From: Candidatus Micrarchaeota archaeon
Lineage (GTDB): Archaea > Micrarchaeota > Micrarchaeia > Norongarragalinales > UBA8480
Direction: 5' to 3'
DNA length: 33,870 nucleotides
NCBI GenBank assembly: GCA_043805855.1
Contig: JAZDHP010000031.1
Span: forward strand, 1 to 33,870
A model generated the notes under the pieces. It was not told where the DNA came from. It ran no database searches and worked only from the letters and a program-made list of their open reading frames with translations. Shown piece after piece: positions 1 through 27,912 of this stretch (positions are counted from its first letter, which is position 1; every line of letters begins with the position of its first letter). The position numbers were made by a program, and so were the translations under genes.

Positions 1-36
1 ATGTTCGGTTGAAATTAACTAATTAAAAAAGAGAAG

Positions 37-251
37 TGCCGCGGGGGAGAAGTATCCAACTTTTTCTTTTTCCAAGGTTTTTCTTTTCTAAAGAAAAAGC
101 TTTTGAACACCCGACCTCTAGATGGCTCGAGCAAACCTTGAGTTTAGATTTACTTTATGAGTTTCACAAACGGGAATTTTCTTTTCCCTCGGTCTTTTCT
201 TTTTCTAAAAGAAAAGCCGTCTAGCGCTCTAACCAACTGAGCTACCGCGGC
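37..251 (-). tRNA. tRNA-Met(CAU), probably elongator, with three introns (about 163-220 at 30/31, 124-155 at 37/38, about 51-101 in the T-loop near 59/60)
   Basis: Joined minus-strand exons give GCCGCGG TA GCTC AGTTGGTTA GAGC G CTAGA CTCATAA TCTAG AGGTC GGGTG TTCAAAT CTCCC CCGCGGC A, a full cloverleaf with one U.U mismatch in the T-stem. Anticodon CAT at 157-159. The 37/38 intron forms a BHB with outer helix AGTAAATC/GGTTTGCT. A GCC 5' end suits elongator Met better than Ile2 or initiator. Confidence 0.85.
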
Positions 252-418
252 ATCTGCAAAATCGCTAAGCGATTTTGTCTGCGATCACAAACGAAGTTTG
301 TGTCGCGTCTTCGGGCAGCTGCCCGAAGCCAGAGTCATAATGCTTCAAGCATTATGCTCATCTGTATTGTTTGTTGTGTTTGCCAATTTATAAAAGACTG
401 TGCGTGCTTAACGTTTGT

Positions 419-889
419 ATGTCTTATATTGAAGATTCGTTGCATTCGTTTGCTGGCAATGATTTGTTTAAAGTGTTTAACTTTTTCATGCAGGACGCTG
501 TGTTTGCGGTTGTAGTGCTTTTGCTTGCGGTTTTCCTAGTTTGGCGCATGCGTAAAAGTCCAGTTGTAGTTGTCGGGTCGCTTGTTGTTGTTTTTATAGC
601 GGTGCAACTTGCGAAGTTGCTATACCAAGATCCAAGGCCTTGCGTTGGGCTAGATGGTTGTGAAACTGGTTTTGGCTTTCCTTCACTCCACTCAGCTATG
701 TCATTTGCACTTGCTGGAACTGTTTTTGGAACAAAGGCGTTTTACACGCTTATTGCTTTTGCAGTGTTAGTTGCGTTGTCGCGGGTTATTTCGCTGCAGC
801 ATTCTTTTCCGCAAATTGTTGCCGGCGCGGTTCTTGGGTTCCTCGCTCCGTTGCTATTGCAAAAGCTTCTTTCAATGGTGAAACTCTGA
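419..889 (+). CDS. PAP2-family membrane phosphatase
   Basis: KxxxxxxRP, FPSxH and SRxxxxxH motifs with TM helices. ATG at 419 preferred over the ORF-track start at 371. Confidence 0.85.
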   Translation: MSYIEDSLHSFAGNDLFKVFNFFMQDAVFAVVVLLLAVFLVWRMRKSPVVVVGSLVVVFIAVQLAKLLYQDPRPCVGLDGCETGFGFPSLHSAMSFALAGTVFGTKAFYTLIAFAVLVALSRVISLQHSFPQIVAGAVLGFLAPLLLQKLLSMVKL

Positions 890-1467
890 TGCGCGGTAAT
901 GCAAAGCGCGAGGATTTGCGCAAAGTAGTTCACTTGCTAGTTGGAGTAGCTGCGGTTTCAATTGTGCAGTTTGTTGGATTTAACTCAGGGCTATTATTTC
1001 TAGTGGCTATTTTCCTTGTTGGTTTACTGCTAGCTAACTTCAAGATGCTTGGTGGCGAAGTTAAAGCCGTTGACCAAATTTTATCTGTGCTTGACCGTGG
1101 CGATTCAGTTCCGGCAAAAGGAGCAATGGTGTTCGCAGCTGGAATAATTATTTTACTTACTTACGCGAGGCCACTAGAGTTTGCGCTGGGGATTGTTTTG
1201 CTCCACGCTGCTGGTGACGCGTTTGCAACTATTGTCGGCCGGAGGTTTTCAAAACACTCGCTGCCGTGGAATCGAGAAAAGACAATTGCGGGAATTGCGT
1301 CGTATTTTATTTTCGGAACGTTGGCCGCCTTGGTTTTCATTCCGTTTCCCAGCGTGATTTTATATGCGTTGGTTCTAGCTATTGTAGAATCGCTGCCGTT
1401 GAAAGTGGATGACAACTTGACAGTTCCACTTACAGCGCTGTTGTTAATATTGGGTGGTTTTGCGTGA
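889..1467 (+). CDS. dolichol/phytol kinase-like membrane protein (CTP-dependent polyprenol kinase family)
   Basis: RKxxH, GDAFATIVG, EKTIAG and DDNLTVP motifs; overlaps the upstream stop. Confidence 0.85.
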   Translation: MRGNAKREDLRKVVHLLVGVAAVSIVQFVGFNSGLLFLVAIFLVGLLLANFKMLGGEVKAVDQILSVLDRGDSVPAKGAMVFAAGIIILLTYARPLEFALGIVLLHAAGDAFATIVGRRFSKHSLPWNREKTIAGIASYFIFGTLAALVFIPFPSVILYALVLAIVESLPLKVDDNLTVPLTALLLILGGFA

Positions 1468-2093
1468 AGGGAATTTTTATTGTAGTTGAAGGAATTGACG
1501 GTTCAGGCAAAGGGTACATGATGATGCGCTTGCAAGAGTACATAACTGGCCGTAGTAAAAAGTACGACCACGTTTTACTAACGCGAGAGCCGACTAATTC
1601 AAACATTGGCCAAAAAATGCGCGAAATCCTTGTAAAAGAAAGCGACCCTACAACCGGCGCGCGCAAGTGTCTAGACTTGTACGTTTCTGACCGCAAGCAA
1701 CATTTGGAAAATCATATTCTTCCAGCTTTGGAAAAAGGTTACGTTGTGCTATGCGATCGCTATAAGTATTCAACAATGGCTTTCCAAGCGGCGCAGGGAC
1801 TTCCACTCGAAGAGTTAATCGAACTACAAAAAGACTTTCGCACGCCAGATTTAACCCTAATTCTCGATTTGCCAACGCGCCAGGCAATTGCGCGCATACG
1901 CTACCGTGACTGGCAGGGCAGCAACGAAAAATTTGAAGATCCAACTTTCATGGAAAAAGTAAGAATGAACTACCTAACAATTGCGCATCAACTAAAAGAC
2001 CCAATTGAAATCATAAACGCGGGGGTTGAAAAAGTGGAAATGTTCAACCAAGTCAAAGCCGCAATTGAAAAACGCGGAATACTGCCGTACTAA
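1464..2093 (+). CDS. tmk: thymidylate kinase
   Basis: FIVVEGIDGSGK P-loop, TREP, CDRY, PDLTLILD. Confidence 0.93.
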   Translation: MKGIFIVVEGIDGSGKGYMMMRLQEYITGRSKKYDHVLLTREPTNSNIGQKMREILVKESDPTTGARKCLDLYVSDRKQHLENHILPALEKGYVVLCDRYKYSTMAFQAAQGLPLEELIELQKDFRTPDLTLILDLPTRQAIARIRYRDWQGSNEKFEDPTFMEKVRMNYLTIAHQLKDPIEIINAGVEKVEMFNQVKAAIEKRGILPY

Positions 2094-2132
2094 AACAATT
2101 AAAAACAAAAACCGCGCTAAAAATTTCACGTT

Positions 2133-2360
2133 GCTTCGATCGTCTAGTCCGGTCACGATCCTTTTCTTTTTGGAAAAAAGAAAAGCAATCGATGGAAAAG
2201 AAAAAATTTAATCTTTCTTTTCCATGAAGCTTTTCTTTCTTTAGAAAGAAAAGGTTCGTCGGTCAAGGACACTGGCCTTTCAAAACAAGGGCCGCTCATT
2301 GGCTAAAGCGGGCTTTCTCAAAGAAAGCCGGTAACTCGGGTTCAAATCCCGATCGGAGCA
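2133..2360 (+). tRNA. tRNA-Glu(UUC) with two introns (2155-2264 in the D-loop; 2283-2325 at 37/38)
   Basis: Exons give GCTTCGA TC GTCT AGTCCGGTCA AGGAC A CTGGC CTTTCAA GCCGG TAAC TCGGG TTCAAAT CCCGA TCGGAGC A. D-loop intron: CCGG/TCGG central helix with TCA bulges. Canonical intron: CTTT/AAAG central helix with CA|A and AA|A bulges. Confidence 0.92.
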
Positions 2361-11171: not shown

Positions 11172-11573
11172 ATGGGTTTAAATAAGAGTCAACTTGAATT
11201 GTACTTCGCGTTTACAGGAAGGCACAAACGCTTCCTAAAGTTAAGAGAAACTAGTTTCAACATTAAGCAACTTGAAGACGGCGTTTCAATAACTGAAAAA
11301 GCAGTAAAAGCAGTGCAAGCCGCTTGCAAAAACTTCGAGTTACCAATAGCCGAATGCCTTGCTAAACCTGCAAAACGCTCTGCATTAATAAGAGAAATGC
11401 GCAAAAAAGCGCCACGCATAACTCCAAAAGAAGCCGCGTTTATACTAGAGCACTTTGAATCTTTTCAACTCGCCGTTTCAACCGCACAAGCGCCAGTAAG
11501 CGTCAAAATTTCAAAGAAACCCTCAGAATACGGCGACAAATACTACCAACCAACACAACACAAGTATCGGTAA
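11172..11573 (+). CDS. basic hypothetical protein
   Basis: 133-aa ORF with ATG start, divergent from the antiporter. Confidence 0.6.
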   Translation: MGLNKSQLELYFAFTGRHKRFLKLRETSFNIKQLEDGVSITEKAVKAVQAACKNFELPIAECLAKPAKRSALIREMRKKAPRITPKEAAFILEHFESFQLAVSTAQAPVSVKISKKPSEYGDKYYQPTQHKYR

Positions 11574-11575
11574 GC

Positions 11576-11621
11576 CCTTTTTCTTTGCGAAAGAAAAAGG
11601 TCTTCCAACCCCAAAAAGAAA
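11576..11621. repeat. free-standing copy of the pyrimidine-tract/hairpin element found in the tRNA introns
   Basis: CCTTTTTCTTT-GCG-AAAGAAAAAGG hairpin followed by AAAAAGAAA. Confidence 0.6.
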
Positions 11622-27840: not shown

Positions 27841-27912
27841 GCCTCTGTAGCTCAGTGGTAGAGCGCTTGTCTTGTAAACAAGAGGTCGCGAGTTCAATTC
27901 TCGCCGGGGGCT
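27841..27912 (+). tRNA. tRNA-Thr(UGU), intronless
   Basis: GCCTCTG TA GCTC AGTGGTA GAGC G CTTGT CT TGT AA ACAAG AGGTC GCGAG TTCAATT CTCGC CGGGGGC T. Confidence 0.96.

Follow-up and report, generated by a model that had tools for sequence, protein, structure and literature searches.

Small structured cassettes, each combining a perfect hairpin with a tract close by that exactly mirrors the adjacent hairpin arm, lie mostly within bulge-helix-bulge (BHB) introns of tRNA genes in a micrarchaeal genome, where they form one abundant, order-wide, dispersed family. The source is Candidatus Micrarchaeota archaeon (GCA_043805855.1, 92% complete; G000 in our genome set), and the window, meaning the whole stretch of DNA that was analysed, is positions 1-33,870 (33,870 nt) of contig JAZDHP010000031.1. 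A cassette comprises a pyrimidine (Y) arm, a triloop and a purine (R) arm, the arms pairing over 9-12 bp, with the tract set off from the hairpin by a spacer of 4-16 nt; stems in the hairpin scan measure 8-13 bp, and the A/T-rich arms include one to three G-C pairs. Three sequencing runs share small word fractions with this DNA, all of DNA type and from groundwater or drinking water.

For the genome-wide count, a hairpin was a Y-arm/R-arm pair with a stem of at least 8 and at most one mismatch, and a mirror tract had to match the inner arm exactly within 32 nt. An exact mirror tract accompanies 67 of the 87 such hairpins in the genome, while five dinucleotide-preserving shuffles yielded 9-21 hairpins each, with 0-1 mirror tract. 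In this genome the pattern CTTTTCTTT-N(2-7)-AAAGAAAAG matches 32 times on each strand, against 0 for the same pattern written backwards; the cassette pattern was found in 21 of 41 related genomes, again with 0 for the reversed control. Shuffles and reversed-pattern control together rule out a chance origin in a low-complexity genome. The original prediction had described four copies of one dispersed element as the content of the non-canonical introns of two tRNAs, and had proposed a search against shuffled controls. All four copies lie where it placed them, with tract/arm pairs that read exactly as quoted, the element does fill the non-canonical introns of tRNA-Met and tRNA-Glu, and the counts above extend the family well beyond these. 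In the literature searched (main texts outside subscription journals), we met with no account of archaeal tRNA introns that carry mirror or triplex cassettes.

Tract and arm run lengths change together, as first seen in the four copies, and the rule holds with more of them. Among 49 arms whose pattern is not self-symmetric, the tract is an exact mirror in 46 and a direct copy in 4, which rules out reading the tract as a direct repeat; permuting arm/tract partners (2000 trials) gave a mean of 17.5 and a maximum of 26 of 49. This genome has 16 distinct asymmetric run patterns, each mirrored, and further mirrored patterns are seen in other families: six genomes from these have an exact mirror in 45 of 58 hairpins, with 29 mirror versus 5 direct for asymmetric arms. 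Strongly asymmetric examples in this genome are the 1-3-5 and 2-3-4 patterns on C29 and C53. Tract length equals stem length exactly. The outermost positions break the mirror rule, since stems closed by CC/GG have tracts that begin CC, UC or CU and not the mirror GG. Taken alone, copies 1 and 2, with their near-symmetric run lengths, do not separate a mirror from a direct repeat; that distinction comes from copies 3 and 4 and from the genome-wide set. The features of the window are these, with BHB motifs assigned by inspection:

37 to 251, minus strand: tRNA-Met(CAT)-type gene, read by eye, with exons 251-220, 161-156, 123-102 and 50-37 (74 nt joined)
51 to 101, minus strand: T-loop intron (59/60) of tRNA-Met, holding copy 1, relaxed BHB
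61 to 73 (tract) and 78 to 98 (hairpin, 9 bp, triloop), minus strand: copy 1, which in the tRNA sense reads hairpin, then purine tract
124 to 155, minus strand: element-free canonical 37/38 intron of tRNA-Met (32 nt)
162 to 219, minus strand: 31/32 intron of tRNA-Met (58 nt), holding copy 2
172 to 216, minus strand: copy 2, hairpin 194-216 (10 bp) and tract 177-186, mirror 10/10
2133 to 2360, plus strand: tRNA-Glu(TTC) gene with two introns
2155 to 2264, plus strand: D-loop intron of tRNA-Glu (110 nt), a palindromic double module, strict BHB
2161 to 2185 (hairpin, 11 bp) and 2194 to 2206 (purine tract), plus strand: copy 4 (reverse), mirror 11/11, direct 9/11
2213 to 2223 (pyrimidine tract) and 2230 to 2253 (hairpin), plus strand: copy 3, orientation opposite to copy 4, mirror 11/11, direct 8/11
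2283 to 2325, plus strand: element-free canonical 37/38 intron of tRNA-Glu (43 nt)
11576 to 11621, plus strand: fifth copy, hairpin 11576-11600 and tract 11611-11621

Neither ARAGORN nor Rfam detected the tRNA-Met(CAT) gene in the raw window. Cutting out two segments in 36960 trial removals produced 10149 ARAGORN calls, of which 321 were tRNA-Met(cat), with boundaries that differ from our exon map; the top reading was tRNA-Leu(caa). Because ARAGORN is permissive on trial-spliced sequence and accepts many boundaries, the exon borders were taken from orthologues without the introns, namely G015 (no intron 1) and G002, G003 and others (no T-loop intron). The relaxed BHB of the T-loop intron has a 5-bp helix (UUCAA/UUGGA), a 3-nt 5' bulge (AAA) and a longer 3' bulge. 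Its copy 1 fits mirror and direct repeat equally (9/9 each); in the minimum-energy fold the Y arm has the tract and not the R arm as its partner, and a 3-nt bulge flanked by two helices contains the 5' splice site. Copy 2, whose predicted fold has -18.1 kcal/mol (z -2.2), adds a second hairpin (172-176/184-188), whose loop contains most of the tract. The canonical 37/38 intron, with an H helix of CUC/GAG and bulges, is kept in all orthologues compared.

The tRNA-Glu(TTC) gene, supported by intronless or one-intron orthologues, is likewise overlooked by standard finders; once its first intron is removed, ARAGORN recognises it as tRNA-Glu(ttc) containing a canonical intron of 43 nt. For both genes the exons, joined after intron removal, equal the uninterrupted orthologues. 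At the D-loop intron, the H helix pairs 2149-2152 with 2259-2262 (CCGG/UCGG) between UCA bulges at 2153-2155 and 2263-2265, and an outer helix pairs 2156-2161 with 2253-2258. This intron folds at -52.7 kcal/mol (z -8.5; as good in 0 of 200 shuffles), the tracts of copies 3 and 4 pair with each other by Watson-Crick rules, and 82% identity over about 100 nt links the intron to an insert of the 23S rRNA gene. The earlier claim that copies occur in both orientations is true of flips elsewhere, such as one subfamily that is sense at C22:4558 and antisense at C59:16122, but the opposed pair in tRNA-Glu consists of the two halves of one palindromic double module, a single long hairpin. A CGGTCA repeat at this intron was considered as a target-site duplication and rejected: the palindromic central helix and identical bulges account for it, and since BHB symmetry itself produces the repeat, it was not counted as a transposon mark.

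Genome-wide, a GTTCRA T-loop motif precedes 27 of 68 copies by no more than 20 nt, and by inspection the hairpin of T-loop introns directly adjoins the 5' bulge, where it could supply the BHB with its outer helix. Read in the tRNA sense, most copies in this genome have the purine-tract orientation (27 T-loop-adjacent and 23 same-strand copies versus 11 opposite-only). By eye, most copies appeared to have a second small hairpin with the tract in its loop; this impression did not survive a strict count, which gave only 27 of 68 versus 23% in flank-shuffled controls, a modest enrichment. Other cassettes lie inside the 23S rRNA gene or on the 3' side of three ORFs. The fifth copy, absent from the original list and with no tRNA nearby, begins 3 nt past the stop codon of ORF 11172-11573 and folds at -22.2 kcal/mol (z -3.5). 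The three ORFs directly before a cassette end in K-Y-E/R-stop and encode unrelated proteins. Reading the fifth copy as an mRNA intron was rejected, given that the three ORFs are unrelated and have no common downstream sequence resembling a splice site.

Comparison with orthologous tRNAs identifies the tRNA-Glu D-loop and tRNA-Met T-loop introns as lineage-specific gains, not found in same-genus orthologues: the former did not turn up in five of them (G005, G009, G012 and, in synteny, G002 and G003), nor the latter in six (G002, G003, G004, G006, G008 and G015). Near-identical introns sit at different positions and in different tRNAs of this genome. Window positions 220-177, at the 31/32 intron of tRNA-Met, are 100% identical over 44 nt to a T-loop intron at G000:C58:2506-2549, and the T-loop intron of tRNA-Met has 91% identity over 55 nt with another at G000:C8:30515-30569. 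The 31/32 site of tRNA-Met contains three different cassettes in G000, G003 and G002, the one in G002 inverted, and a plain hairpin with no tract in G004 and G008. Cassettes often replace one another inside pre-existing introns rather than entering intact genes. The idea of a dispersed mobile element as a route of intron gain draws support from the two lineage-specific introns and is qualified by the frequent swapping inside existing introns and by the failure to find mobility machinery or a target-site duplication. Searches of the 92%-complete assembly for a Y1 transposase (the transposase family covered) and for a reverse transcriptase found neither; with no target-site duplication and no Y1 transposase found, the cassette does not classify as a DNA transposon or MITE.

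We favour, at slightly better than even confidence, an account in which a cassette family fills and sometimes creates BHB introns, spreads by recombination and has its mirror tract selected for triplex formation. The host would tolerate cassettes because the flanking bulge-helix-bulge allows an endonuclease to remove them. Spread and exchange between introns would take place by DNA-level recombination or gene conversion, perhaps aided by the conserved flanks of the T-loop and by the self-complementary hairpin that cassettes have in common. Selection may maintain the mirror tract as a third strand on the hairpin, in an intrastrand or H-type triplex, and it is the covariation that suggests such pairing. 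Triplex formation in DNA, as something that a cassette needs for its own propagation or turnover, seems to us somewhat more likely than a working role in the pre-tRNA, because both orientations occur and same-site introns of relatives do without it. The Y.R-Y triplex geometry of the original prediction fits this covariation but holds only for the opposite strand or for copies in the minority orientation: read along the tRNA, the majority have a hairpin and then a purine tract, and therefore pairing in RNA would be R.R-Y, not Y.R-Y. To our knowledge, a purine third strand (A.A-U, G.G-C) is weak or excluded in all-RNA helices. Several points count against a triplex. A fully closed second hairpin and a full-length triplex are probably sterically incompatible, the tracts of double modules pair mutually and leave no strand free, and the minimum-energy fold of 11 of 68 copies joins Y arm and tract by Watson-Crick pairing. 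Also counting against the favoured account, we can name no benefit that a DNA triplex would bring to cassette spread.

A bolder possibility, which we regard as doubtful, is a self-propagating element whose heritable 'code' is the triple helix; its own BHB ends would turn intact tRNA genes into intron-bearing ones, and copying or keeping the element would require the tract to act as its third strand, whether in intron RNA or in DNA that is single-stranded or supercoiled. It is unlikely, in our judgement, that the cassette is instead a working part of the pre-tRNA, in which a tract displayed by the second hairpin's loop would dock onto the long one through base triples or groove contacts, either stiffening a three-way junction by the splice-site bulges or preventing mispairing between AU-rich introns and exons. 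The hairpin abutting the 5' bulge of T-loop introns, the excess of looped tracts, the exact match of tract and stem lengths and the predominant purine-tract orientation would all suit such a role. Counting against it are same-site introns with no tract or cassette (G004, G008 and the tRNA-Glu(CTC) intron of this genome), an RNA-sense orientation that varies even at one orthologous site (G002) and copies outside introns, 3' of ORFs; a closed loop of 9-10 nt also seems too short to run along 9-12 base pairs.

The Y arm-tract pairing of copy 1, with its 5' splice site in a 3-nt bulge, and the 11 of 68 copies that prefer such pairing raise another reading, that the Y arm has in the tract a second possible Watson-Crick partner (a two-state switch or BHB inner helix), the mirror being a low-complexity A/G by-product; patterns of the G-A(n)-G type indeed fit mirror and direct copies alike. 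This reading predicts direct copies, yet asymmetric arms have 4 of 49 direct versus 46 of 49 mirror, and the hairpin is on average about 4 kcal/mol better than the best alternative (-9.2 versus -4.9), so we consider it improbable. We give very little credence to the idea that nothing beyond the hairpin matters, with the mirror inherited from a few master copies and altered by homopolymer slippage, and the cassette neutral junk. Identical cores common to many copies, very simple composition and fast turnover are in keeping with it, but 16 distinct asymmetric patterns are each mirrored, with more in other families, and shuffles yield only 0-1. Each new pattern needs two matched changes, because no copying process makes a mirror (non-complemented, reversed) sequence.

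Among known structures, H-DNA has a homopurine-homopyrimidine mirror repeat as its defining sequence requirement. The purine arm and purine tract of the cassette likewise form a mirror repeat, with a spacer of 4-16 nt, but here one mirror half doubles as an inverted-repeat arm, and the whole is a dispersed cassette inside stable-RNA genes. RNA triple helices of the ENE/MALAT1 type use U.A-U major-groove triples to clamp a 3' A-tail; they resemble the cassette in combining a U-rich/A-rich helix with an extra strand, and in a possible stabilising role, whereas the commonest RNA-sense arrangement here needs A.A-U and G.G-C triples and involves no 3' end. In Thermoproteales, Fujishima et al. in 2010 reportedly found near-identical introns across tRNA positions and read them as recent gain by transposition. 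The near-identical introns at different positions of different tRNAs here are similar, in a different phylum and with a different endonuclease type; we know of no report of a mirror or triplex pattern, orientation flips or palindromic double modules in the Thermoproteales introns.

The closest bacterial counterparts are the intrastrand triplex repeats of the BoxC/PIT/TMECO and ITxF classes (Holder et al. 2015, PMC4666352; Hoyne and Maher 2000/2002, cited there). According to the part of that source available to us, these too have a hairpin and a third segment on one strand able to pair as a third strand, and the ITxF-type repeats share many dispersed copies, an excess over scrambled genomes, a link to genomic variability and paired triplex classes on complementary strands (PMC4666352). 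Cassettes show the ITxF geometry, a hairpin with a same-strand third segment and stems of 8-15 nt (67 of 87 hairpins; 8-13 bp), and by composition fall outside the G/C-rich TMECO/BoxC group, so that they work like an ITxF-type motif, not like BoxC. TMECO is G/C-rich, bacterial and intergenic, with tRNA mentioned 0 times in the available text (PMC4666352), whereas cassettes are A/T-rich, archaeal and in spliced introns.

The nearest biological setting is that of Candidatus Micrarchaeum (ARMAN-2), whose tRNAs have non-canonical, multiple BHB introns cut by a three-unit epsilon2 endonuclease (PMC3239211, PMC3488258), which the accessible portion of the account describes as broad in specificity (PMC3239211). 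Our genome encodes this broad-specificity epsilon2 type of splicing endonuclease, as a 388-aa ORF (EndA) with a PF01974 match that aligns end to end with the ARMAN-2 epsilon2 structure 4fz2 (E 9e-131). The BHB endonuclease invoked in the original prediction is thus encoded, and would be expected to carry out the removal. The two systems are alike in lineage type, enzyme architecture, heavily disrupted tRNAs, 59/60 T-loop introns and relaxed BHB motifs; unlike the present analysis, the ARMAN-2 account, in the portion accessible to us, treats intron positions and motifs, with no shared hairpin-plus-mirror-tract cassette, covariation or turnover (PMC3239211). The words hairpin, purine and triplex are absent from the available part of a 2025 structure paper (PMC12397907).

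Standard tRNA finders overlook nearly all tRNA genes of such genomes (on this 92%-complete one, 5 Rfam matches over the cut-off and 11 ARAGORN genes), a gap that a cassette-aware finder would repair. The gain of BHB introns becomes testable, with two introns in one species that were not found in its congeners and candidate donors in the same genome, as does natural selection on three-stranded pairing, for which there are dozens of independent arm/tract pattern pairs, with covariation of the sort that normally serves as proof of RNA helices. If the self-propagating view is true, the cassette would be a directly observable mechanism of intron gain, and if the pairing is in RNA, it would also be the first natural family of purine-motif RNA triplexes. 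The reason why the tRNA genes of DPANN archaea are so heavily interrupted can be tested on this small system, and in the cassette nature provides a setting for studying the origin of introns and the possible use of three-stranded pairing in cells.

tRNA-Thr at 27841 is the sole tRNA called by ARAGORN and Rfam in the 33.9-kb window. Read by eye, the two regions to which the original prediction had assigned four copies of a small element are intron-split tRNA genes, and the window sequence and a hairpin scan place all four copies (1 and 2 in a tRNA-Met gene, 3 and 4 in a tRNA-Glu gene) exactly where it had put them. As it had proposed, they constitute non-canonical introns of two different tRNAs, filling the Met 31/32, Met T-loop and Glu D-loop introns.

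Cassettes and intron-split tRNA genes of the window; a cassette is a hairpin (pyrimidine arm, loop, purine arm) plus a nearby tract mirroring the adjacent arm.
251-220, 161-156, 123-102 and 50-37, minus strand: four exons of a CAT-anticodon tRNA (tRNA-Met) gene, by eye
219-162, minus strand: tRNA-Met intron between positions 31 and 32, filled by copy 2
155-124, minus strand: tRNA-Met canonical 37/38 intron, without the element
101-51, minus strand: tRNA-Met T-loop 59/60 intron, filled by copy 1
2133-2360, plus strand: tRNA-Glu(TTC) gene with two introns, by eye
2155-2264, plus strand: tRNA-Glu D-loop intron, 110 nt, composed of copies 4 and 3
2283-2325, plus strand: tRNA-Glu canonical intron, 43 nt, without the element
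11576-11621: fifth copy, from the hairpin scan

Automatic tRNA counts are unreliable for genomes of this sort; across the window's whole genome (G000, 92% complete), only five tRNA matches pass the Rfam cut-off, and ARAGORN, run with introns permitted, returns 11 genes, some clearly wrong (e.g. one with a 1100-nt 'intron'). The T arm of the CAT tRNA (window 102-115 and 37-50) has a U52-U62 mismatch in its stem, seen also at orthologous loci L056, L057, L061 and L062; it is common to the orthologues shown from G000 and its same-order relatives G002, G003, G004, G008 and G015, and is not found in that of G006. This recurrence suggests a real identity feature of the CAT-anticodon tRNA, which would perhaps be of the Ile2 type. 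The window start overlaps the end of another contig of the assembly (C20:14404-14515 is 100% identical to window 30-141), apparently an overlap left by assembly at a repeat; because of it, raw scans of the genome count the tRNA-Met T-loop intron twice.

The assembly (1.03 Mb, 67 contigs, 41% G+C, 92% complete) was scanned for hairpins whose 5' arm is all pyrimidine and whose 3' arm is all purine (stem at least 8, loop 2-9, no more than one mismatch). It contains 87 of these, forming 60 clusters, and 67 of the 87 have an exact mirror image of the inner arm within 32 nt to one side; an exact direct copy accompanies 25 of the 87, mostly arms that mirror themselves. Five dinucleotide-preserving genome shuffles yielded 9-21 hairpins, with a mirror tract in 0-1 and a direct copy in none. 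The pattern is genuine and goes well beyond what chance would give.

A mirror-based filter kept 71 copies; being circular, it was used for the comparison of mirror with direct repeats only. Dropping two likely chance hits (C2:11946 and C9:2182) and the assembly duplicate of copy 1 (C20:14452) left 68, with exact mirror tracts in 65/68 and exact direct tracts in 23/68. Among arms with a non-symmetric pattern the tract is an exact mirror in 46 of 49 and an exact direct copy in 4 of 49, and on this comparison a direct-repeat reading of the tract is rejected. The run lengths of arm and tract had been said to change together, and with more copies the covariation holds: every copy is an exact mirror in 14 of the 16 distinct asymmetric patterns (6/8 and 5/6 in the other two), so that, for example, purine-arm runs of 1-3-5, 2-2-4 and 2-3-4 accompany tracts of 5-3-1, 4-2-2 and 4-3-2. 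With each arm paired to another copy's flank, matches averaged 17.5 of 49 and never exceeded 26 (2000 permutations); with the copy's own flank shuffled instead, the mean was 0.13. In CC/GG-closed stems the tract starts with CC, UC or CU, not GG; thus the outermost one or two positions escape the mirror rule.

One exact hairpin pattern is present in 21 of 41 genomes of the order, G000 included, with 32 matches per strand in G000 and 6, 13 and 8 in its three congeners, while the backwards-pattern control gave 0 in all 41. In 40 loci around pattern matches from six genomes of five other families, a choice biased to that hairpin type, all hairpins were counted: exact mirror tracts occur in 45/58, asymmetric arms show 29 mirror versus 5 direct, and new patterns appear (e.g. 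2-3-5 with 5-3-2) that obey the mirror rule.

On the purine-tract strand the hairpin comes first, then a 4-16-nt spacer, then the tract. In predicted folds this first hairpin is the minimum-energy pairing in 52/68 copies, and in 11/68, copy 1 included, the pyrimidine arm favours pairing with the tract. The tract lies within the loop of a second hairpin (at least 4 bp closing; 172-176 with 184-188 in copy 2) in 27/68 copies versus 23% of flank-shuffled controls, and this second hairpin is real, though less general than the by-eye impression. In some introns two modules are joined into a long palindrome that runs hairpin, purine tract, pyrimidine tract, hairpin. One such double module is the tRNA-Glu D-loop intron; both its tracts pair together, and it is predicted to fold as a single long hairpin (-52.7 kcal/mol, z -8.5). 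An insert in the 23S rRNA gene (C5:60364-60460) is another, 82% identical to it.

That 23S gene (C5:57583-61835) has a 4253-nt Rfam LSU match against a 2987-position model, implying ~1.3 kb of inserts, one with the double cassette. At C63:10373-10556, one hairpin is followed by six or more spaced AAAAAGAAAA-type purine tracts, an arrangement that resembles an array more than an intron. Another repeated hairpin family, GCAAAAACC...GGTTTTTG beside TGACTCAG-like words, recurs elsewhere in the genome and takes the mirror tract's place after some hairpins (regions of C8:9688, C56:2241, C2:11946 and C8:3282).

On the purine-tract strand, a GTTCRA T-loop motif precedes the start of 27/68 copies by no more than 20 nt; of the remainder, 23 have GTTCRA within 250 nt on the same strand, 11 have it on the opposite strand alone, and 7 have none. 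By inspection, exon UUCA/UUCG in the T-loop introns pairs with UGAA/CGGA near the intron 3' end, with 3-nt bulges on both sides and the long hairpin adjoining the 5' bulge. The tRNA-Glu D-loop intron has a textbook bulge-helix-bulge (BHB) splice motif, with central helix CCGG 2149-2152 paired to UCGG 2259-2262, bulges of UCA on both strands (predicted cut after the second base) and an outer intron helix of 2156-2161 with 2253-2258. A 388-aa endonuclease encoded in the genome matches over its full length the three-unit epsilon2 splicing endonuclease of ARMAN-2 (PDB 4fz2, E 9e-131); according to PMC3239211, that enzyme cleaves relaxed as well as canonical motifs, and the tRNAs of ARMAN-2 are heavily interrupted, 59/60 included.

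Three cassettes of one subfamily (window 11576-11621, C64:12360 and C9:36505) start 3-11 nt after ORF stop codons. The ORFs are unrelated: one encodes a 133-aa protein without Pfam match, one a pilin-like protein, and one what looks from its sequence like a permease of the FtsX type. All three end in K-Y-E or K-Y-R before the stop codon and resemble one another over their last 13 nt. The arrangement may reflect a preference in insertion, a role at the 3' end or as a terminator, or mere chance.

Synteny of the neighbouring genes extends to two congeners, with both tRNA genes on one contig, ~1.9 kb apart. The tRNA-Glu(TTC) D-loop is uninterrupted in G002 and G003, its sequence being exactly that of the joined exons, and the intron is absent also from the G005, G009 and G012 orthologues. 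In the tRNA-Glu(CTC) paralogue of G000 the corresponding position carries a short intron that begins and ends with the same bases but has no tract, so gene conversion from the paralogue is a possible origin of the tRNA-Glu(TTC) intron. The tRNA-Met T-loop intron was not found in the orthologues of G002, G003, G004, G006, G008 and G015; G013 has one, with a cassette of its own. The nearest relative of the window's intron is a T-loop intron of another tRNA on C8 (91% identity, 55 nt). The Met 31/32 site holds a 4-4 cassette in G000, a CC-closed 3-5 cassette in G003, a cassette of a further subfamily in opposite orientation in G002, plain hairpins without tract in G004 and G008, and no intron in G015. 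The window's cassette at this 31/32 site and a C58 T-loop intron share 44 identical nt. The occurrence of copies in both orientations is seen again in a single subfamily in T-loop introns of different tRNAs (C22:4558 and C59:16122). Taken together, these orthologue and copy comparisons indicate that the cassette is exchangeable and invertible, that it is not required for an intron at a site, and that at least two of the window's introns are recent.

At C9:30705-30900 and C32:6100-6250, a pyrimidine-first cassette lies between two copies of a tRNA's last 14-25 nt (T-stem 3' strand plus acceptor 3' strand), a duplication that may mark a recombination or insertion event.

We propose that cassettes are tolerated as the flanking BHB gets cut, and that they would spread and be swapped by recombination between copies, with the T-loop supplying shared flanks and the hairpin, its own reverse complement, allowing alignment in either orientation. 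The original reading of a dispersed, possibly mobile element of intron gain is right in outline, with qualifications: the family, its turnover and the recent introns speak for it, but a search of the 92%-complete assembly for a Y1 transposase and a reverse transcriptase found neither.

The mirror rule would reflect third-strand pairing with the hairpin, since no copying process reverses a sequence without complementing it, and a protein with two-fold symmetry would recognise direct or inverted repeats rather than mirror ones. Where such a triplex would form is a separate matter. Purine-type triplexes are weak in RNA, and in the commonest orientation an RNA third strand would be of the purine type; moreover, a full-length triplex would sterically exclude the second hairpin. 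Since the cassette is found in both orientations and introns can do without it, we lean to a putative triplex at the DNA level, an intrastrand or H-type structure that would be tied to the cassette's own persistence.

Among the closest published kinds to this family are ARMAN-2's disrupted tRNAs with their epsilon2 enzyme (PMC3239211) and the intron transposition reportedly found in Thermoproteales, which that paper cites. The bacterial intrastrand triplex repeats BoxC/PIT/TMECO (PMC4666352) belong here too and have a similar geometry, whereas the cassettes are A/T-rich, archaeal and intronic. Literature and in-paper word searches found no description of a hairpin/mirror-tract family of tRNA-intron cassettes. 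The family combines known kinds, BHB introns and intrastrand-triplex repeats, and is of high value for testing how introns are gained and whether natural selection acts on triple-strand pairing.
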